From: Acidimicrobiales bacterium
Lineage (GTDB): Bacteria > Actinomycetota > Acidimicrobiia > Acidimicrobiales > Aldehydirespiratoraceae
Assembly: GCA_049437325.1 (NCBI GenBank)
Contig: JBMTIM010000001.1
Coordinates: 80,738-144,737 of the forward strand
Length of the DNA: 64,000 nucleotides
Direction: 5' to 3'
In this document: positions 3,625 through 45,380 of the stretch, piece after piece
Layout of the letters: each line of letters starts with the position of its first letter
How positions within the stretch are numbered: position 1 is the first letter of the stretch
Position numbers and translations under genes: made by a program
Notes under the pieces: generated by a model
What the model saw: only the letters and a program-made list of their open reading frames with translations
Told to the model about the DNA's origin: nothing
Databases searched by the model: none

Positions 3625-4827
3625 TCACCCGGTGGTCCCTGCGTCGACCGGTACCGGTGGCGGGAGGCGCAGCGTGAGCAGCCAGGTGATCCCCACGAAC
3701 ACGGCGGACCCCCACATCGCAACCTCGAACCCACCCCAGAGGTAGAGCGCGCCGCTGAGGAACGTCCCGACGAGACGACCCACGGCGTTGGCCGAGTAGT
3801 AGTAGCCGACATCCATGCTGACTCCCTCGTCGGCCGCATACGCCAAGATCAGATACGAGTGGAGACTCGAGTTCACGGCGAAGACGATCCCGAAGACGAT
3901 CAAGCCACCGGCCACGGCCGGGATTCGCACATCCTCGAAGGTCACGGCCACGGCGATCGCCGCCGAGACGACGCCGAGTCCAAACGCCCATCGCTGCGCT
4001 GCGGCGATGTCGTCGCCCGGGCCGAGCAGGCGCGGCGCCATCGATTGCACCAGGCCGTAGCCGACCAACCACGCTGCGAGGAAGGCGCCCGTTGCCTCGA
4101 ACGACCAGCCGAACGCGTCGTCGAGAAAGACGGGCAGCGCCACCACGAACCAGATGTCGCGCGACCCGAACAGGAACATTCGAGCGGCAGAGAGTCGGTT
4201 GACGGCGACTGAGGTGGACAGCACGGAGGCGAGCGGCGGCTTCTCCTTGGCTCTCCCGATGTCCTCGTCGAGAAGGACTGCCACCGCCACCAGCGCCACA
4301 GCGATGCACGCCGCCATGGAACGCAGGGCTCCCTGATACCCGAGCGCCGAGAGCAGGGAAGCACCGAGAAAGAACCCGAGGCCTTTCAGCGCGTTTTTCG
4401 AGCCGGTCAGCACTGCTACGAACCGGAAGAGCGAGCCCTGCGGGGCAACGAGCTTCACCGCGCTCTTCGAACTCGTCTTCGTGAGATCCTTCGCGATCCC
4501 CGACAGCGCCTGGGCCGCCATCACGTACAGCACCGAGATCCACTCGACCCACGTCGTGCCGTGCAGCGACAGCGCGAGGAGCGCAACGACCTGGAGGACA
4601 AGCCCTGCCAACAGCGTCTGGGCGAGGCCGCGACGGGCACCGAGCCAGCCACCGAGCAGGTTGGTGGCCACCCCCATGGCCTCGTAGAGCAGGAACAGGA
4701 AGGCCAGCGCAATCGGCGAGTAGCCGAGATCGTGGAAATGCAGCAGGACGAGCATCCGCAGCGCCCCGTCGGTCAGGGTGAACGCCCAATAGCCGACGGT
4801 GACGACGACGTAGTTGCGGGTCTTCAT
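3625..4827 (-). CDS. arsJ: Organoarsenical (1-arseno-3-phosphoglycerate) efflux MFS permease ArsJ
   Basis: Track ORF, 400 aa. The N-terminus MKTRNYVVVTVGYWAFTLTDGALRMLVLLHFHDLGYSP...NLLGGWLGARRGL matches my recollection of ArsJ permeases. It is ATGA-coupled to an upstream GAPDH, the canonical ArsJ partner. Confidence 0.85.
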   Translation of the reverse strand: MKTRNYVVVTVGYWAFTLTDGALRMLVLLHFHDLGYSPIALAFLFLLYEAMGVATNLLGGWLGARRGLAQTLLAGLVLQVVALLALSLHGTTWVEWISVLYVMAAQALSGIAKDLTKTSSKSAVKLVAPQGSLFRFVAVLTGSKNALKGLGFFLGASLLSALGYQGALRSMAACIAVALVAVAVLLDEDIGRAKEKPPLASVLSTSVAVNRLSAARMFLFGSRDIWFVVALPVFLDDAFGWSFEATGAFLAAWLVGYGLVQSMAPRLLGPGDDIAAAQRWAFGLGVVSAAIAVAVTFEDVRIPAVAGGLIVFGIVFAVNSSLHSYLILAYAADEGVSMDVGYYYSANAVGRLVGTFLSGALYLWGGFEVAMWGSAVFVGITWLLTLRLPPPVPVDAGTTG

Positions 4828-19957: not shown

Positions 19958-21550
19958 GTGACCGGTCCCCTCGCCGATTCGCCCGCCGATCTCGTCCACG
20001 GCACGTTCAGCGACGAGCCACCATGGCTCGTCGATCCTGACGCGCTGGCGTGGCTCGCCGATGTCGACACGATTCGGACGGCGACGAGTCGGCGCCTTCC
20101 GTCGCTCATCACCCCGCCGCGACTGCCACCGCTTCGGCGGGCGATCACCGTCGTTCGCCACCTCGGCTGGGCGCTGATCGCATGGTTCGTGCGCGGGCGC
20201 CGCAAGGGTGGGTCGCAGAGCACGGCCGATCTGTCTCGTCGGATGCGCAAGGCGGCCGAGATACTCGGACCGACCTACATCAAACTCGGTCAGATCATTT
20301 CCTCCGGCGAGGGCATCTTCCCCCCTGAACTCGTCACCGAGTTCGCCAAGTGTCGCGATCAGGTGCCGGCCGAGTCGTTCGCCGCCGTGCGTCGCGTCGT
20401 GGAGGCCGATCTCGGAGCAACACTCGAATCGATCTTCGCCGAATTCGCCCGCGAGCCGATCGCTGCAGCATCGATCGCGCAGGTCCACGCTGCCACGCTG
20501 CACGACGGCACCGACGTCGTGGTCAAGGTGCAGCGACCCACCGTTGACGATCTCGTCCACAAGGACCTTCGCGTGATGGCCTGGCTGTCTCCGTACCTGG
20601 TCGGCCGTATCCCTGTCGCCTCGCTGGCCAACCCACCCGCCCTCGTCGAGGTCTTTGCGCACACGATCAGCGAGGAACTCGACTTTCGGGTCGAGGCGGC
20701 GAACATGCTCGACGTCGCTCGGGTCTTTGCCGATCTGGAGCAAACCCACTTCGTCGTGCCGCGGCCGCATCCCGAGCTCGTCACCCGTCGAGTGCTGGTG
20801 ATGGAGCGCCTCGATGGCTTCCGGTTCGACGACGTCGAGCGCTACGACGAACTCGGGGTCGACACACATGCGGCAGTCCGCGCCGGGATGATCGGTTTCA
20901 TGGAGGGGGCGTTGATCCACGGGATCTTCCACGGGGATCTCCACGGGGGAAACCTGTACGTGCTCGACGACGGCCGCACTGCCCTGCTCGACTTCGGTAT
21001 CACCGGCCGAATGACCGAGGCCAAGCGCCTTGCCTTCGTTCGATTGTTGATCGGCGGCATGATGAACAACCCGGTCGACCAACTCGCCGCCATGCGTGAC
21101 CTCGGTGCGCTCCCAGATGACACCGACCTCGAGGCTGTTGCGAACGACCTCGGCCTGCTCGACGAGGTGGTCGACCCATTGACGATGACCCCCGACCAGC
21201 TCACCGAGGAGCTGCAACGAGTGGTGAAGGCGCTGCTCGGGTACGGGGCCCGCATGCCGAAGGAACTGATGCTGTTCGTCAAGAACATGGTCTTCCTCGA
21301 CGGTGCCATCGCCACCCTTGCTCCCGATCTCGACCTGTTTGCCGAAATCACCCATGTGGCGACCTACTTCGTCTCCGCCCACGGCGCCCGTCTTGCAGCC
21401 GAAGTCGGAATGGATCCCGACGAGTACGAGTTCGACCCCGACGGCATCCGCGCCGCCTTCGGGGTCGATGCCCAGACGGAGCGAATGACCTACCGAGAAC
21501 TCCAGGAGCGGCGCGAGACCATCAGCCGTCGCCTGCGCAATCGGGTCTGA
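19958..21550 (+). CDS. ABC1/UbiB-family atypical kinase
   Basis: Track ORF, 530 aa. Motifs LGPTYIKLGQIISS, PIAAASIAQVHAATL, VVVKVQRP and HGDLHGGN. Confidence 0.85.
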   Translation: MTGPLADSPADLVHGTFSDEPPWLVDPDALAWLADVDTIRTATSRRLPSLITPPRLPPLRRAITVVRHLGWALIAWFVRGRRKGGSQSTADLSRRMRKAAEILGPTYIKLGQIISSGEGIFPPELVTEFAKCRDQVPAESFAAVRRVVEADLGATLESIFAEFAREPIAAASIAQVHAATLHDGTDVVVKVQRPTVDDLVHKDLRVMAWLSPYLVGRIPVASLANPPALVEVFAHTISEELDFRVEAANMLDVARVFADLEQTHFVVPRPHPELVTRRVLVMERLDGFRFDDVERYDELGVDTHAAVRAGMIGFMEGALIHGIFHGDLHGGNLYVLDDGRTALLDFGITGRMTEAKRLAFVRLLIGGMMNNPVDQLAAMRDLGALPDDTDLEAVANDLGLLDEVVDPLTMTPDQLTEELQRVVKALLGYGARMPKELMLFVKNMVFLDGAIATLAPDLDLFAEITHVATYFVSAHGARLAAEVGMDPDEYEFDPDGIRAAFGVDAQTERMTYRELQERRETISRRLRNRV

Positions 21551-21592: not shown

Positions 21593-22258
21593 ATGCGTTT
21601 GGTTGTGGCTCGGTGCACCGTCGACTACGACGGCCGTCTCCAAGCTCATCTTCCCTCGGCGATCCGGCTGGTGATGGTGAAGGCCGATGGTTGTGTCGCC
21701 GTCCATGCCGACGGCGGCGCATACAAGCCGCTCAACTGGATGAACGCGCCCAATCGCCTGGTCGAGGATCCAGAGGCCGGCGTCTGGACCGTCACCAGCC
21801 CCAAGGGCGAAGTGCTCACCATCACCTTCCAAGACGTGCTCAGTGACACCTCCCACGAGATGGGGTCCGATCCCGGACTGCAGAAGGACGGCGTGGAGGC
21901 TCACCTGCAAAAGCTGCTCGCCGATGATCCCACCTCGATCCAACAGGGACTCACGCTGGTGCGACGCGAGTACCCGACCGACATCGGGCCCGTCGATCTC
22001 ATGTGCCGCGATGCCGACGGCGTAGCTGTTGCCGTGGAGGTCAAACGTCGAGGGGAGATCGATGGTGTCGAGCAACTGTCTCGGTACCTCGACTTTCTCA
22101 ACCGAGATCCGCTCCTGCGACCGGTTCGCGGGGTCTTCGTCGCCCAAGCGATCAAGCCGCAGGCGAAGGTGCTCGCAACCGACCGCGGGATCGCCTGGGT
22201 CGAGGTCGACTACGACGAGTTGCGTGGCATCGAGTCCCCCAACCTGAAACTGTTCTAG
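21593..22258 (+). CDS. nucS: Endonuclease NucS (EndoMS, non-canonical mismatch repair)
   Basis: Track ORF, 221 aa. [16 protein letters not shown]...YKPLNWM...[36 protein letters not shown] is the characteristic NucS sequence. Confidence 0.95.
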
Positions 22259-39476: not shown

Positions 39477-41033
39477 TCAGTCCCACCGCGCCGTCACCCG
39501 CCACACACCTGCTTCGAGCACGACGAGCAGCGCTCGACCATCGGCGGTGACGAGCTGTAGCCGTGCCTGTCGGCAATGTGCCTCGACGTCCCACCAACGC
39601 TCGTCGATCGGCCACGGCCCCGACCATCCGATCACCACCTTGCGTTGACCCTTGACGATCAGTCGAGCAGGTGGTGCCGAGAGCAACCCACGACCGGTGA
39701 CCTCGATCACGGCACCGGATTCGTCGAGGACCTCCACGACCACCGGGTCGAGGAGCAGCCGGGTGGGAGACGGAGCCGGGAGCGAGCCGGGCCAGGGGGC
39801 GGTCTCATCACCGGGGTCGAGCGACCGACCGGCAAGTTCGACGGTAACCGCAGGAATCAGTGTCAGCTGCTCATGGGAATGGCGGCTGCCGCAGAACTCA
39901 GGCACCAGCACGGTCTCCGTACCGAACTGACCCTGTAGACGAGCTGCGATACGCATGGCCCGTTGGTCCACCTCGGTCTCGCCACCCCAGAAGCCGAGTT
40001 GGCGCCCGGTGGCGGCGATGAGCTCGTCGGGAACGAGCGCGATGCACGTGATGCCACCACTCGGTCTGGTCACCGCCGACCCGTTGAGCCAGCCGTCGAG
40101 CTGCCATCGCACCCGGTCGGCAACCGCTGCGTCGGACAACATCCCCTCGTGTCGCCAGAACCGGATGAGCTCTTCACCGTGTTCGGTCTCGGCTCGGATC
40201 CCCACCCGAACACAGGTGACCCCGTCGCGGCCGAGCCGTCGATGCAGTTCGTCGGCGATCGAACGAGCGACGAACGCAACCCGATCGATCCGGTCGGCCG
40301 GTGGATCGATCTCAGCCGAAACCGACCAATCGGCCGGGGGCCGGCGGGCATCGGGCAGTCGTTCCTCGAGTCCTGACGCCAACCGATGTGCACCTTGTCC
40401 TTCACGGCCGAAGCGGCCCAGAACGTCGTTTGCAGGCAGCTGAGCAAACGCACCGAGCGTGGTGATCCCGAGTCGACGGAGCACGCCGGTGAGATCGGGT
40501 CGGTCGAGCAGGTCGATGTTCATCGGTGCGAGGAACTCGGCGGTGGTTCCCGGCGGTATCACTCGGATCGGGGCAGCGCCCCGAGCGGCCAGTTCAGCGG
40601 CAAAGGGCCCATCGGCCACCCCGATGCGCACATCGGTACGACCGCCGACAACCTCGGCCATCCGCGCTCGTGCAAGGTCGGCCACCGCATCGTCACCACC
40701 GAAGTAGCGCGACGGGCCCCGGGAAACGAGCGCACACGTGCCGGGGCGGGTGACCTCGACCCTGGGGGTGATGTCGTCGAGTACGGCGACAACCGGTTCG
40801 AACAAACGTGCCTCTTTGGCCTCGTCTCGGTCGTGGATCGACAACTCGGGGCATCGGGCCTGGGCCATCCTTCGTCGCAAACCTCGTACGACCCCGTGGG
40901 CGCGAGCGCCGGGCGACGCAGCGATGACCCGGTTGGCGAACAAAACCACCGACGGTTCATCGAGCGGTACGCCGGTGGCAACAAGTGGCCAATCAGGACA
41001 CCACGCAACAAGCGTGCGGACGGGTACGACCAT
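39477..41033 (-). CDS. imuB: ImuB (catalytically inactive Y-family polymerase-like mutasome subunit)
   Basis: Last 518 codons of track ORF 39477..41375. Start at MVVPVRTLVAWCPDWP (CAT 41031-41033), an ATGA overlap with the imuA' stop. The Y-family-like N-terminal half matches ImuB as I recall it. Confidence 0.9.
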   Translation of the reverse strand: MVVPVRTLVAWCPDWPLVATGVPLDEPSVVLFANRVIAASPGARAHGVVRGLRRRMAQARCPELSIHDRDEAKEARLFEPVVAVLDDITPRVEVTRPGTCALVSRGPSRYFGGDDAVADLARARMAEVVGGRTDVRIGVADGPFAAELAARGAAPIRVIPPGTTAEFLAPMNIDLLDRPDLTGVLRRLGITTLGAFAQLPANDVLGRFGREGQGAHRLASGLEERLPDARRPPADWSVSAEIDPPADRIDRVAFVARSIADELHRRLGRDGVTCVRVGIRAETEHGEELIRFWRHEGMLSDAAVADRVRWQLDGWLNGSAVTRPSGGITCIALVPDELIAATGRQLGFWGGETEVDQRAMRIAARLQGQFGTETVLVPEFCGSRHSHEQLTLIPAVTVELAGRSLDPGDETAPWPGSLPAPSPTRLLLDPVVVEVLDESGAVIEVTGRGLLSAPPARLIVKGQRKVVIGWSGPWPIDERWWDVEAHCRQARLQLVTADGRALLVVLEAGVWRVTARWD

Positions 41034-41740
41034 CAGTCGACTGTGGCCACGGGATGAGGTGCGCCTCCGGGGCCGGGGAGCAAGACATCGAGCGATCGAG
41101 GTCGCGCCGCCGCTCCCTTGCCACCTCCGGCGATGGTGACCTTGCGTGATTGCAACACGCCATGACCGATACCGATGCCGCACCATCGCGACTCGACGAC
41201 GTCGAGCTGTACGTCGGCACCAACCGGCCACTGTGAGCCGATGCTCACCAGTACCGAACCCCGTTCGCGCAGGCGAGAACCGATCCGGCGAGCATCGGCC
41301 TCGCGCAACCGATGCCTGGGTGAGATGACGATCATGTCGACTGCACCGATCAGCGCAGCGACAGCCGACGGCCACGCGGAGGGTTCGGGATCGATGACCA
41401 GCAACCGCTCGAGCACCACTCCGTGTTCACCTGCTGCAGCGAGACCGATGTCGGTACCGCCGACGAACGCTGTCCATGATCCGGCCGCAGAGGGGCCAGC
41501 GGCAACAGCGAGTGCGAGCGAGGTGGCACCGACCCCTCCGACACCGACGACAACTCCTCGGCGCAGCGCTCCATCGGGAAACAGCGAAGTCAGTGCACCA
41601 TGAACCGGAAGGGTCTGCTCACGGGCGAGAGCGAGCGGCGTGACTCGGTCGGCAACCAGCTCGAGTTGTGCTCGTCGCACGGCTTGATGAGGACCATCGA
41701 GCGTGTCGACAGCAAGGTTTCGCGCATGCCTGTGTGCCAT
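41033..41740 (-). CDS. imuA: ImuA' (RecA/SulA-fold mutasome accessory protein)
   Basis: Track ORF 41033..41758. ATG 41740 (MAHRHARNL) preferred, because the GTG at 41758 lies inside the LexA box. P-loop-like GVGGVGATSLALAVAA segment. Position upstream of imuB. Confidence 0.8.
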   Translation of the reverse strand: MAHRHARNLAVDTLDGPHQAVRRAQLELVADRVTPLALAREQTLPVHGALTSLFPDGALRRGVVVGVGGVGATSLALAVAAGPSAAGSWTAFVGGTDIGLAAAGEHGVVLERLLVIDPEPSAWPSAVAALIGAVDMIVISPRHRLREADARRIGSRLRERGSVLVSIGSQWPVGADVQLDVVESRWCGIGIGHGVLQSRKVTIAGGGKGAAARPRSLDVLLPGPGGAPHPVATVD

Positions 41741-41746
41741 CCCGCG

Positions 41747-41775
41747 AGTATCGAACACCTGTTCGCTTTGCGCAA
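41747..41775 (-). promoter_or_regulatory. Putative leaderless imuA' promoter: -35 TTGCGC, 17-nt spacer containing the LexA box, -10 GATACT, 6 nt, ATG
   Basis: Read on the minus strand: TTGCGC-AAAGCGAACAGGTGTTC-GATACT-CGCGGG-ATG. Same geometry as the dnaE2 promoter. Confidence 0.5.
41751..41766. promoter_or_regulatory. LexA (SOS) box TCGAACACCTGTTCGC upstream of imuA'
   Basis: GAAC-N4-GTTC core with TC/GC flanks, close to the mycobacterial TCGAAC-N4-GTTCGA consensus, 11-26 nt upstream of ATG 41740. Confidence 0.75.
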
Positions 41776-41904
41776 GAGGCGCTCCGGGACGATGACTCGA
41801 TCAGACGCACTGCGATCTTCGACATCAGGTGATGATCGGTTGCGCTCCTCGGAACGATCTCGGTCATCGGGAATGCGACACCCTGTCGCCGGGTTCTGAC
41901 CGAC

Positions 41905-42213
41905 ATGAGAGTCGACGTGAGTACCGCTGCAGCTGCCGCTATCGCCCGCAAGGGGGGAACTGCGGTCGTCGACCTGCTCGAACCATACGGTTGAGGCAAG
42001 AAGTTCGAGGTGTCGGTCGACACCCACACGACCGGCAGAACCCTCGAGGGCTACACCCGAGCGAGCATCGACGAGGTGCTCATCCTCATCGACCCTGATC
42101 TTGCCCGACTCCCCGTCGAGATCCATGTGACGAAGGCCGGACTCTTCGGTCGCGGCGTCGGTGTGTTTGTCGATGGGCTCGACGGTGCTCCCTGTCCGAT
42201 CGATCTCATCTGA
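41905..42213 (+). CDS. Candidate UGA-recoded small protein (102 codons if TGA 41992-41994 is read as Sec); otherwise a 67-aa ORF from GTG 42010
   Basis: ATG 41905 opens 29 codons (MRVDVSTAAAAAIARKGGTAVVDLLEPYG). Then comes an in-frame TGA, then the same frame continues GKKFEVSVDTHTTGRTLEGY...GAPCPIDLI to TGA 42213 (track ORF 42010..42213). A hairpin with a GGUC loop lies 14 nt after the TGA. Weak SD. Third-position GC is lower (about 62-75%) than in neighbouring genes. Confidence 0.35.
42009..42024 (+). other. SECIS-like hairpin GGUGUC-GGUC-GACACC downstream of in-frame UGA
   Basis: Perfect 6-bp stem with a GGUC tetraloop, starting 14 nt after TGA 41992-41994. A possible lower stem is UCG(42005-07)/CGA(42029-31). 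Confidence 0.35.
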
Positions 42214-42300
42214 TCGATCCTTCTCGCACCAGGGTGCCCACCGACCCGACGATCGCACCGGCTCCGGCGAATCGTGGGCGGAGAGGTAGGGTCGGCGCCG

Positions 42301-43044
42301 ATGAGTACCGACGATCGAGTCACCACCGAACGGGCCCGTTTCGCAGCATGGTCGAAGGCCGCCGAGGAGTCGGGTGACGAGCCTGCGCTCCCGGCCGCCA
42401 CCGTCATCGTGCTGCGCGACGGAACCGACGGGCCCGAGACGCTCATGCTGCGAAAGAACAGCACCATTGCATTCGGTGGGATGTGGGTGTTTCCCGGCGG
42501 GAAGGTCGATGACACCGACTGGGAGGGCGCCGACGATGCCGTGGCCGCCGCTGCGAATGCAGCCGTACGAGAAGCCGCCGAAGAAGCTCGTTTGCGGATC
42601 GAGCTCGACGACATGGTCGTTTTTGCCCACTGGATTCCACCGGCGATTGCGCCGAAGCGGTACGCCACGTGGTTCTTCGCCGCTCCGGTCGACGACGACG
42701 ACGTGATCATCGACGACGGCGAGATCGTCGACATGGAGTGGACAACTCCAGCGGCTGCGATCGACAGGCACCACCGCGGTGAGATCGAGATCGTGCCACC
42801 CACGTGGGTGACGCTCGACCTGCTCACCGGTCACGACACGGTGGCATCGCTGCTGGCGTTCCTCGACGAACGACCGGCCCGCTACCACGCCACCAAAGTC
42901 ACCCGGGGTGGTGAGCATCCCGTCGTGATGTGGCACGGCGATGCCGGCTACGACACAGGTGATCCCACCATCGACGGGCCGCGCCACCGACTCACCATGA
43001 AGCCCGACGGCTACGTGTACGAAGACGACGGAGTGCTCGATTGA
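42301..43044 (+). CDS. NUDIX hydrolase
   Basis: Track ORF 42274..43044. ATG 42301 preferred. Nudix box GGKVDDTDWEGADDAVAAAANAAVREAAEEARL. Confidence 0.85.
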   Translation: MSTDDRVTTERARFAAWSKAAEESGDEPALPAATVIVLRDGTDGPETLMLRKNSTIAFGGMWVFPGGKVDDTDWEGADDAVAAAANAAVREAAEEARLRIELDDMVVFAHWIPPAIAPKRYATWFFAAPVDDDDVIIDDGEIVDMEWTTPAAAIDRHHRGEIEIVPPTWVTLDLLTGHDTVASLLAFLDERPARYHATKVTRGGEHPVVMWHGDAGYDTGDPTIDGPRHRLTMKPDGYVYEDDGVLD

Positions 43045-45380
43045 CCGACGCACCGACCGGCCTCACCGGCGCCGAGGTCGCCGCCCGCGTCGCCGACGGC
43101 CGGGTCAACAATGTTCCCGACGCGCCGGTACGCACGGTCCCCCAGATCATCCGGGCGAACGTGTTCACGCCCGTCAACGCGATCATCGGCACCCTCTTCG
43201 TGCTGATCCTGGTCGCCGGCTACCCCGCCGACGCACTGTTCGCCGGTGTCGTCGTCTCCAACTCGGTGATCGGCATTGCACAGGAGGTGCAGGCCCGGCG
43301 CACGCTCAATGCGCTCGCTGTGCTCTCGGCGCCAAAAGCCCGTGTCCGTCGCGACGGCATCACGACCGAGATCGGGGTGAGTGGCGTCGTCGCCGACGAG
43401 ATCCTCGAACTCGCACCCGGTGATCAGGTGGTCGTCGACGGTGACGTCATGGCGGCATCGGGTCTCGAGATCGACGAATCGCTGCTCACCGGCGAGTCTG
43501 ACCCGGTGGAGAAGCGCATCGGCGACCGGGTCATGTCGGGGTCGTTCGTGTCGGCCGGTTCCGGTCTGTACTGCGCGACCCATATCGGGGCCGAGTCCTA
43601 CGCAGCGAAGCTGTCCGAGGAAGCCCGACGGTTCGAGCTCGCCGGCAGTGAACTTCGGCGCGGCGTCGATCTCGTGCTGCGCTGGCTGACCTTCATCATC
43701 CCGCCGGCGTCGATCCTGCTCCTGCTTCGTCAGCTCGACACCCAGGATCGGTGGCAGGACGCGCTCCAGGCCACGGTGGCTGCTGCAGTTGCGATGGTGC
43801 CCGACGGCCTCGTGCTGCTGACCAGCTTGAGTTTCATCACCGGGGTGATCGCGCTCGCCCGCCGTCAGGCGTTGGCGAAGGAACTGGCATCGGTCGAATT
43901 GCTGGCCCGGGTGGACACCCTGTGCCTCGACAAGACGGGCACGATCACCACCGGTGAGATCAGTCTCTCGCGCATCGAGGTTGTGGGTGACAGCGGCGAA
44001 GACGACGCAGCCGCAGTGCTCGGGGCGCTCGGTGCATCGGACCCGTCACCGAACGCGACCCTCGCTGCCATCGTCGAGCACTACCACGCACCCGACGACT
44101 GGCATGCCACTCGGACGCTGCCGTTCTCGTCGGCCCGCAAATGGGCCGCCACCGAGTTCGGCGAGCGAGGCACCTATTACCTCGGCGCTCCCGATGTGCT
44201 CTTCGACGCTGACGATCACGACGAGCGGGCCCAGGCCGAGGCGGCAGCGGCGACGGGGCTGCGGGTTCTGCTCGTCACCCGGTCCGATGACGGTTGGCAC
44301 GATCAGAAACTTGGTTCGAGCCGCACGCCTGTGTGCCTGGTGCTGCTCGAGGACACAGTGCGTCCTGATGCCCCCGAGATCTTCGCCTTCTTCAAGGAGC
44401 AGGGGGTGCAACTCAAGGTGATCTCGGGTGACAACCCGGCGACCGTCGCCGAGGTGGCACGCCGGGCCGGGGTGGACGGCGCCGACACGTGGGTCGACGC
44501 ACGCACCATCCCCGACGACCCGGACGGACTGGCCGATCAACTCGAGACCACGACCGTGTTCGGGCGCGTCACTCCTCACCAGAAACGAGCGATGGTCCAC
44601 GCACTCCAGAGTCGAGGGCGCACCGTCGCCATGACCGGCGATGGTGTCAATGACGTCCTGGCACTCAAGGACGCCGACATGGGCATCGCGATGGGCGCAG
44701 GATCGTCTTCGACCCGCGCTGTCGCCCAACTCGTCCTGCTCGACAACCGGTTTGCCACCCTCCCCCGGGTGCTCTCGGAAGGACGGCGGGTCATCAACAA
44801 CATCGAACGGGTCGCCAACCTGTTCATCACGAAGGCGGCCTACGCCGTGCTGCTCACCGCCCTCGTCGGCATCGCCGGATCACCATTCCCGTTCCTCCCC
44901 CGCCAGCTCACCCTGATCGGCACGTTCTCGATCGGCGTCCCCGGCTTCTTCCTGGCCCTCGCCCCCAACGAGTCGCTCGTTCGGCCTGGGTTCCTCGAGC
45001 GGGTGCTGCGGTTCTCTCTGCCCGCTGGCACGGTGGCCGGCGCAATCACCTACGCGCTCTACGAATGGGTCCGCCGCCTCGACGGCGTCACCCTCGCCGA
45101 GGCTCGCACCGCAGCCACGGTGACCCTGCTTGGGATCGGCCTGACCATCCTGGTGCTCATCAGCCGTCCTCTGAGGCCGTGGAAGATCGGACTCGCAGTG
45201 GCGATGGCCGGCCTGTACGCCATCGTGATGGCGATCCCGTTCGGCCGCACCTACTTCGAACTCGATCTCCCGACCGGTGAAGGGTGGCTCGGCGTGGCCT
45301 GCGCAACGCTGATCGGCTCGGTGGGTGTCTGGGTTGCGAGCCGACTGTTCGGCCCCGAAGACAGCGGACGTGCATCATGA
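43041..45380 (+). CDS. Cation-translocating P-type ATPase (HAD-IC type)
   Basis: Track ORF, 779 aa. TTG start overlaps the NUDIX stop (TTGA). Motifs TGES, CLDKTGTITTG, MTGDGVNDVLALKDADMGIAMG. Confidence 0.9.
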   Translation: MTDAPTGLTGAEVAARVADGRVNNVPDAPVRTVPQIIRANVFTPVNAIIGTLFVLILVAGYPADALFAGVVVSNSVIGIAQEVQARRTLNALAVLSAPKARVRRDGITTEIGVSGVVADEILELAPGDQVVVDGDVMAASGLEIDESLLTGESDPVEKRIGDRVMSGSFVSAGSGLYCATHIGAESYAAKLSEEARRFELAGSELRRGVDLVLRWLTFIIPPASILLLLRQLDTQDRWQDALQATVAAAVAMVPDGLVLLTSLSFITGVIALARRQALAKELASVELLARVDTLCLDKTGTITTGEISLSRIEVVGDSGEDDAAAVLGALGASDPSPNATLAAIVEHYHAPDDWHATRTLPFSSARKWAATEFGERGTYYLGAPDVLFDADDHDERAQAEAAAATGLRVLLVTRSDDGWHDQKLGSSRTPVCLVLLEDTVRPDAPEIFAFFKEQGVQLKVISGDNPATVAEVARRAGVDGADTWVDARTIPDDPDGLADQLETTTVFGRVTPHQKRAMVHALQSRGRTVAMTGDGVNDVLALKDADMGIAMGAGSSSTRAVAQLVLLDNRFATLPRVLSEGRRVINNIERVANLFITKAAYAVLLTALVGIAGSPFPFLPRQLTLIGTFSIGVPGFFLALAPNESLVRPGFLERVLRFSLPAGTVAGAITYALYEWVRRLDGVTLAEARTAATVTLLGIGLTILVLISRPLRPWKIGLAVAMAGLYAIVMAIPFGRTYFELDLPTGEGWLGVACATLIGSVGVWVASRLFGPEDSGRAS

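Follow-up and report, generated by a model that had tools for sequence, protein, structure and literature searches.

Among described systems, the one closest to the element reported here is the selenocysteine insertion sequence (SECIS) of Escherichia coli fdhF, a short G+C-rich hairpin just 3' of the UGA codon for selenocysteine (Sec), whose minimal 17-nucleotide (nt) form GGUUGCA-GGUC-UGCACC is bound by SelB. G23 and U24 of its loop are conserved and are needed for SelB binding (PMC8659212). A model of bacterial SECIS elements comprises an apical loop of 3-9 nt, an upper stem of 4-16 base pairs (bp), a G within the first two loop positions, a distance of 16-37 nt between UGA and loop, and a minimum free energy (MFE) of <=-7.5 kcal/mol (PMC13188914). 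On the protein side, the nearest family is NCBIfam NF041239 ('CC/Se motif family (seleno)protein'; Moorella thermoacetica type), a small family of about 90-100 residues with Sec-containing members. Its motif is listed as CxxU (or CC) (PMC13188914). Here we analyzed positions 41905-42213 within a 64,000-nt stretch of DNA (the window; G+C 65%) from an Acidimicrobiales bacterium, and we consider it probable, at about 85%, that they constitute one unannotated gene, with a compact fdhF-like SECIS, whose product is a selenoprotein of 102 residues. Judged by sequence comparison, the protein very probably represents a new selenoprotein family of marine Acidimicrobiales that is distantly related to NF041239.

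Gene model and conservation of the in-frame UGA

The features of the proposed gene are as follows.
41905..41991, + strand: start codon and N-terminal 29 codons (MRVDVSTAAAAAIARKGGTAVVDLLEPYG), read from the sequence, with a conserved start and coding-type substitutions
41986..42025, + strand: block around the UGA and the hairpin, fully invariant (wobble positions included) in the six closest loci (alignment A1)
41992..41994, + strand: in-frame UGA, proposed Sec codon for residue 30; TGA in 20/20 unique family sequences
41995..42213, + strand: C-terminal 72 codons and terminal stop (TGA 42211-42213), from the sequence and homologous loci
42009-42014/42019-42024, + strand: stem of a SECIS-like hairpin with loop GGUC at 42015-42018 and invariant GU at 42016-42017, from pairing, covariation and RNAalifold
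42193..42195, + strand: codon of Cys97 in the nearly invariant C-terminal motif G-A-[AP]-C-P-I, from the alignment; candidate partner of Sec30

The arrangement proposed by a sequence-only reading of this locus was confirmed in the sequence. The ATG at 41905 opens 29 codons, TGA follows at 41992-41994, and the frame then stays open to 42213, while the hairpin GGTGTC-GGTC-GACACC occupies 42009-42024, 14 nt past the TGA, with its loop beginning at nt 24 (U of UGA = 1). Read through, the frame encodes 102 residues. Public gene calls cover only 42010-42213 (67 residues), labelled 'hypothetical protein' in NCBI metagenome-assembled genomes (MAGs) named 'Acidimicrobiales bacterium', which also encode proteins identical to the neighbours of the gene. 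Since TGA is the normal stop of 32/43 long open reading frames (ORFs) in the window, there is no genome-wide reassignment of UGA. We scanned both strands of the 64 kb for an in-frame TGA flanked on either side by >=20 open codons and followed at 8-20 nt by a hairpin of >=6 bp with an NGUN loop, and this locus was the single site; in any frame, an NGUN-loop hairpin stands behind 5 of the 1592 TGA triplets. Other in-frame TGA candidates at 4334 (+), 51300 (+) and 45885 (-) were rejected because their translations were off-frame sequence rich in Ser, Arg, Ala and Pro.

Searches among 5.8 billion proteins returned 10 clusters in a first round and 118 clusters when an alignment of the read-through sequences served as the query, and 1.84 billion representatives, scanned exhaustively by HMMER with a C-terminal profile, gave 26 matches. 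All these database entries are fragments or gene calls cut short. Those of full size have 67-75 residues and begin just past the TGA position, and a few fragments, such as P0010, P0122 and P0126, terminate at that position. Matches to giant proteins (P0014, P0029, P0031 and P0035) were discarded as not homologous, being summed weak matches to a short beta-repeat. Homologous DNA was collected as 8 loci through protein look-ups and 9 through a metagenome scan, together with distant relatives in a different gene context; the patterns used in the scan, VVDLLEPY and GKKFEVSV, flank the UGA position without including it. Carriers of the gene are the JAPOHW01 assembly, the assembly with MGA0236873.1, GCA_029980125.1, GCA_029976185.1 and GCA_046756685.1, as well as the long contigs Ga0209992_10000003 and Ga0315338_1000062. 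The resulting 20 unique homologous sequences, 18 of them complete, extend to ~39% protein identity (L023) and fall into three neighbourhoods: divergent from imuA'-imuB, beside genes for a NUDIX hydrolase and a P-type ATPase on the opposite strand, or neither. Every one of the 20 carries an in-frame TGA at the same position, which bears out the sequence-only reading on its central point, and the internal stop is constantly TGA though the terminal stop varies (TGA 13, TAG 7). The arrangement is thus both unique in 64 kb and recurrent in 20/20 unique homologous sequences, which disfavours chance.

The very close relative L001 (JAPOHW010000003.1, a GTDB representative) is identical to the window over the first 86 nt of the gene, and several downstream codons differ (HTRGRTLESYIRAGIDEVLVL vs HTTGRTLEGYTRASIDEVLIL). 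By this comparison, the window DNA appears to belong to a close relative of the JAPOHW010000003.1 assembly and not to that assembly.

Substitution patterns on both sides of the UGA

In 18/18 complete sequences, the TGA is preceded at a distance of exactly 29 codons by ATG or GTG. When all pairs were summed over these 29 codons, synonymous and nonsynonymous differences numbered 1136:1459 in frame, compared with 260:2350 and 154:2329 in the other two frames, which corresponds to ratios of 0.78 for the proposed frame and of 0.11 and 0.07 for the others. Measured in this way, the upstream 29 codons evolve as coding sequence. On the other side, the codon after the UGA is always Gly (GGC 16, GGT 1, GGA 1, GGG 2), and the five codons between the UGA and GTG 42010, where the public gene call begins, vary mainly at synonymous third positions. 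That GTG is itself GTA in five loci (L012 and L014-L017). Furthermore, L014, L015 and L017 have zero in-frame ATG, GTG or TTG codons between the UGA and the terminal stop, and their 72 codons are conserved as protein; in these three loci the C-terminal part therefore requires read-through of the UGA.

Hairpin downstream of the UGA

In the six closest loci, third positions vary on either side of the ~40-nt block that runs from TACGGT-TGA to the end of the hairpin. The invariance of this block indicates a constraint at the RNA level beyond coding. In distant loci, GGTGTC-GGTC-GACACC is replaced by GGTATC-AGTT-GATACC, with all changes synonymous and coordinated. Among 17 sequences, 99.2% of the cells were paired, compared with 22-67% when the 3' partners were slid; one stem pair occurs as GC 11, AU 5 and GU 1, and loop positions 1 and 4 occur as GC 10 and AU 7 with none broken, around a constant central GU. 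RNAalifold independently predicts the same 6-bp stem.

Compared with the SECIS model, the hairpin of the window lies within the described ranges, with a loop of 4 nt (GGUC or AGUU in the family), a stem of 6 bp and a loop 20 nt from the UGA. Its calculated free energy is -8.1 kcal/mol, the bare 16-nt cores of the other variants range from -5.2 to -7.5 kcal/mol, and the same calculation gives -4.2 kcal/mol for the minimal E. coli fdhF hairpin. The GGUC tetraloop of fdhF is identical to that of the window, and the family-invariant loop GU corresponds to the SelB contacts G23 and U24. The paired covariation of loop positions 1 and 4 is a further likeness to fdhF. In contrast to fdhF, a lower stem is not conserved in the family, and roughly one third of its members carry AGUU in the loop. 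Rfam, which covers bacterial SECIS elements poorly, gave nothing relevant around the site; a raiA-hairpin match lay on the other strand (E 1.1). We dropped a longer MFE structure obtained from the window alone, as it uses non-conserved downstream bases. A weak second helix suggested by RNAalifold (window 41991-42008), in which U-UGAG including the Sec codon pairs with UUCGA, is retained in most family sequences and was rejected because it is broken in L023 and L022.

Putative promoter

Upstream of the start codon, the following elements were recognized.
41870..41874, + strand: -35 element GGAAT of a putative sigmaH/SigR-type (extracytoplasmic function, ECF, sigma factor) promoter; motif conserved in 18/18 loci
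41893..41895, + strand: -10 element GTT of the same putative promoter, ending 9 nt before the ATG

GGAAT-N18-GTT precedes the start in 18/18 unique complete loci, with GGAAT beginning 34-38 nt (usually 35) before the start codon and with a spacer sequence that varies freely among loci. It is also present in L023, which has no neighbour genes in common with the window. This motif is the sigmaH-specific consensus of Corynebacterium, in which the last T of the -35 element distinguishes sigmaH from sigmaE, and the same motif marks the SigH/SigR promoters of Mycobacterium and Streptomyces; the genes that it drives are thiol-redox genes, thioredoxin and mycothiol genes included, such as trxB1, mca, mshC and sufR in Corynebacterium (PMC10012870). 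We assigned a putative SigH/SigR promoter where GGAAT-N18-19-GTT occurs at a conserved distance upstream, as is the case in 18/18 loci. Within the 64-kb window the motif was found 2 times against 0.8 expected, so that a single match is not significant; the assignment was made because of positional conservation across loci and not because of a single occurrence. The likeness to the SigH/SigR promoters of Actinobacteria thus consists of GGAAT-N18-GTT with the sigmaH-specific last -35 T, and the difference is that the element here is known as a conserved motif and that the consensus comes from organisms far from Acidimicrobiia. As a motif, the conserved GGAAT-N18-GTT promoter of this gene appears to be new here. 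Neither a sigma70-type promoter nor an intrinsic terminator was found in 41700-42400.

Because the GTT ends 9 nt before the ATG, the mRNA of the gene is likely leaderless or near-leaderless, as suggested by this spacing. A near-leaderless mRNA would in turn explain the missing ribosome-binding site, so that the weak ribosome-binding site, noted earlier as a caveat, can be accounted for by the conserved promoter. The second match in the window, at 21407-21432 (+), lies inside the 3' end of one ORF and ~160 nt upstream of ORF 21593-22258, and it could be a second sigmaH-type promoter or chance. The product of ORF 21593-22258 is presumably NucS/EndoMS-like, from the look of its N-terminus.

Protein family and possible function

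The protein had no match in Pfam. NF041239 was the best NCBIfam match for 7/7 members tested and the only match for six, and its alignment always ran from residue 1 across the UGA, while the 67-residue C-terminal part alone had no NCBIfam match. Around Sec, the context P-[YFL]-G-U-G-K is invariant and Cys is absent within 60 residues, so the CC/CxxU motif of NF041239 is absent; here Sec has no neighbouring Cys, and the sole conserved Cys is 67 residues away. Alignment A5 of full-length sequences shows this residue, Cys97, without variation, and its conservation exceeds 90% in a set of 93 sequences. On these grounds the family appears to be a distant relative of NF041239 and not a member. The link to 'CC/Se-motif' proteins that the sequence-only reading had suggested was thus retained as a best match spanning the UGA, and it failed as membership, with scores under the cut-off and no CxxU or CC motif.

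The same reading had also suggested HesB/IscA-like proteins, which share with the present family a similar size and a reactive residue ~30-35 residues from the N-terminus plus a Cys near the C-terminus. Sequence support for this link was lacking, with no Pfam or NCBIfam match of that kind and an hhalign probability of 4% against E. coli IscA, and we rejected homology to IscA at the sequence level. The HesB-like selenoproteins of TIGR01911 differ in their motif, UxGP (PMC13188914), from UGKK here. An AlphaFold model, a Foldseek search and one profile were built from the C-terminal 67 residues only. The model was all beta (predicted local distance difference test score, pLDDT, 81.6), and its top Foldseek matches were IscA (1x0g) and SufA (2d2a), both non-significant with E 0.55-6.9 and template modelling (TM) scores of 0.27-0.34, which amounts to a mere hint of a related fold. 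A sequence search of the PDB brought up nothing but ribosomal protein L25/Ctc (E 0.4), a match ascribed to chance. Our best guess is that Sec30 and Cys97 may form a selenenylsulfide redox pair, or a sulfur- or metal-binding site, that would act under thiol-oxidative stress.

Truncated and decayed copies

The only relatives without the UGA are N-terminally truncated paralogues, located as follows.
L025:1082-1309, truncated paralogue
L025:3001-3228, truncated paralogue
L025:4094-4297, truncated paralogue, decayed (third copy)
L026:3001-3228, truncated paralogue
L027:899-1126, truncated paralogue

They have 75 residues (M-R-x-K-x-x-FEVSVDT...CPIELL) and begin with an ATG that directly precedes the Sec position, where AGG (Arg) replaces the UGA; no N-terminal domain is encoded upstream of them in any frame. 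Their DNA is ~90% identical to the full-length gene of the L015/L017 type, with homology that begins abruptly at the ATG, ends at the stop codon and is flanked by unrelated sequence, and they occur in multiple copies per contig (three in L025). We regard them as secondary copies and not as orthologues. The earlier reading had held that homologues without the upstream 29 codons would speak against it; the full-length loci keep these codons, and the copies that do not are these secondary ones. Gene conversion, cassette-like transfer and retro-copying are candidate routes to copies with such ORF-precise borders, and the paralogues suggest that the C-terminal module can exist alone.

Decayed family copies from a 'Candidatus Aldehydirespiratoraceae' MAG were seen separately at L019:1501-1749 and L021:1368-1616 (P0025) and in P0119. 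In them the N-terminal half carries a frameshift, the region of the C-terminal Cys has been lost or has an internal deletion, and the gene context differs (GSDH, guanylate cyclase).

Proposed expression and alternative explanations

In the selenoprotein reading, transcription driven by the ECF-type promoter (GGAAT-N18-GTT, of the sigmaH/SigR class) would begin a few bases short of the ATG and would yield a leaderless or near-leaderless mRNA. A ribosome would translate 29 codons and meet the UGA at codon 30, where the 6-bp hairpin 14 nt downstream would expose the loop G-U and recruit SelB with Sec-tRNA(Sec). Selenocysteine would then be inserted without termination and 72 further codons translated. 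The product would be small and mainly of beta structure, with Sec30 inside the invariant G-U-G-K and with the invariant Cys97 near the C-terminus, and most likely it would be a thiol/selenol redox or sulfur/metal-handling protein induced by thiol-oxidative stress. This recoding mechanism is the known textbook one, and the newness lies in the family. The reading is directly supported by the conserved in-frame UGA, the coding character of both sides, the startless loci, the covarying hairpin and the conserved promoter motif, and we infer from there dependence on SelB, actual insertion of selenium, the sigma factor, the leaderless start and the biochemical role. As for the Sec machinery in related organisms, selA, selB, selC and selD are reported for all 84 complete genomes of Actinomarina (Actinomarinales, class Acidimicrobiia; preprint), and bin76, a 90%-complete MAG of a marine Acidimicrobiales with 65.7% G+C, encodes SelA (2), SelB (1) and SelD (1) (Table S4, PMC5649159).

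Several points weigh against this reading. No full-length homologue that replaces the UGA by Cys or by another residue occurred among the 5.8 billion or 1.84 billion proteins, so the Cys-containing homologues that the sequence-only reading expected to align with Sec did not appear in the databases searched, and the classical Sec/Cys pairing was not seen in the 118 clusters, 10 clusters and 26 representatives checked. Searches by tblastn with the E. coli proteins found no selA, selB or selD in the 64-kb window, in line with what had been noted for it, or in ~100 kb of fetched loci, and no tRNA was found in either. Compared with fdhF, the family hairpin is without the bulged U (U17) that E. coli SelB needs, its spacer is 14 nt versus 11 nt, and its loop GU stands at nt 25-26 versus 23-24. 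The AU forms of the covarying pairs are confined to one clade, so the independent compensatory events are few, at least two as judged from the alignment. The truncated paralogues retain the same hairpin nucleotides without a UGA, which slightly weakens any argument that the conservation reflects SECIS function only; part of it could be inheritance or gene conversion. The NF041239 scores of the seven members range from 12.2 to 26.2 bits (E 6e-6 to 0.15), below the curated cut-off of 40 bits. Finally, the sigma factor, the transcription start and the function of the protein are each deduced.

We weighed the selenoprotein reading against the possibility that the locus holds two genes, a 29-codon upstream ORF that ends at the UGA and a 67-residue protein that starts at GTG 42010, either independently or by termination-reinitiation, with a hairpin that occludes the start. 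It agrees with all public calls, which have 67-75 residues and start at or near GTG 42010, with the position of this GTG in the 5' arm of the hairpin, and with the existence of stand-alone 75-residue copies of the C-terminal module. The sequence-only reading had named homologues that start at GTG 42010 as a case against itself, and this case fails, as five loci read GTA there and three are devoid of any canonical start past the UGA; these loci remove the explanation by an upstream ORF with coupled restart. A Shine-Dalgarno sequence is also absent, the codons between UGA and GTG change mainly synonymously with all four Gly codons in use, NF041239 aligns as a single domain across the UGA, and the internal stop never switches to TAG as terminal stops do. 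We therefore regard two genes as very improbable. A pseudogene, or a chance ORF with a chance hairpin, in which TGA arose by mutation from an earlier Cys or Trp codon and left the gene dead, would fit with a third-position GC (0.62 before and 0.78 after the UGA) below that of the surrounding genes and with the truly decayed copies in L019, L021 and the third copy of L025. The TGA and the frame nevertheless persist over 20 unique sequences down to ~39% protein identity, and the divergence among the loci excludes that they are assembly copies of one sequence. With both sides under purifying selection and with start codon and promoter conserved, this explanation falls away, and we consider it hardly tenable.

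The alternative that retains the most weight is that the UGA is read through as a residue other than Sec (e.g. Trp, Cys or Arg) by near-cognate or suppressor decoding that the hairpin stimulates, in a genome without Sec machinery. Three of the points above fit with it: the window and the fetched loci yielded no selA, selB or selD, no Cys homologue occurs in the databases searched, and the hairpin is retained in the paralogues that have lost the UGA. The geometry of the hairpin with its invariant loop GU is, however, of the SelB-binding SECIS type, a sense codon would be cheaper and yet the TGA was never replaced (20/20), related Acidimicrobiia possess the machinery, and the nearest family model is a selenoprotein family. 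Read-through of this kind seems unlikely. A little more room, though still at low odds, is left for a joint account: an obligate-Sec family without a Cys counterpart, expressed from a leaderless stress-sigma mRNA, with a hairpin that has a second role, or else hairpin-dependent decoding without Sec machinery. The second role is considered because the hairpin is kept in UGA-less paralogues copied exactly from the pre-Sec codon to the stop.

Genomic neighbourhood

The neighbouring features on the imuA' side are as follows.
39477-41765, - strand: imuA'-imuB SOS mutagenesis cassette, divergent from the selenoprotein gene
41751..41765: LexA-box-like palindrome TCGAACacctGTTCG (TCGAAC-N4-GTTCG), read from the sequence, at the divergent imuA'-imuB operon

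The divergent, LexA-controlled imuA' promoter had been placed about 140 nt from the gene, and the LexA-box-like palindrome indeed lies 140 nt upstream of the ATG, which is 105 nt upstream of the -35 element in the window. Similar palindromes occur upstream of the gene in L005, L007, L008, L010 and L014-L018, and in several loci the palindrome is merely 10-40 nt from GGAAT. The divergent pairing with imuA'-imuB is conserved down to ~54% ImuA' identity. In two MAGs, a gene for an HNH endonuclease/DUF222 protein stands between imuA' and the selenoprotein gene (L007:1632-2735 and L008:1631-2515), and in both the selenoprotein promoter and the LexA-like box stay beside the gene despite the insertion.

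On the other side, 42214-45380 of the window contains, 87 nt downstream and in the same orientation, genes for a NUDIX hydrolase (MutT-like) and a P-type ATPase. No intrinsic terminator was detected in between, and these genes could be co-transcribed with the selenoprotein gene. Loci of the close clade share this gene order; L012 and L013 show it inverted, and L015-L018 lack it.

Significance

The gene is mis-annotated in every public record found, either as a 'hypothetical protein' of 67-75 residues or as two fragments, and this mis-annotation spans more than 100 protein clusters from marine Acidimicrobiales metagenomes. As the recoding mechanism is the textbook one, the finding extends a known kind of gene and adds no new principle. 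The small hairpin, defined by covariation, could help to find other selenoproteins in this lineage, and the system could serve for studying Sec insertion 30 codons into a leaderless mRNA. The sigmaH/SigR-type promoter leads to the hypothesis that the gene is induced by thiol-oxidative stress, and the absence of a Cys form is unusual and suggests a chemistry that truly needs selenium. Taken together, the corrected gene model would add a selenoprotein family to abundant and poorly studied ocean bacteria.

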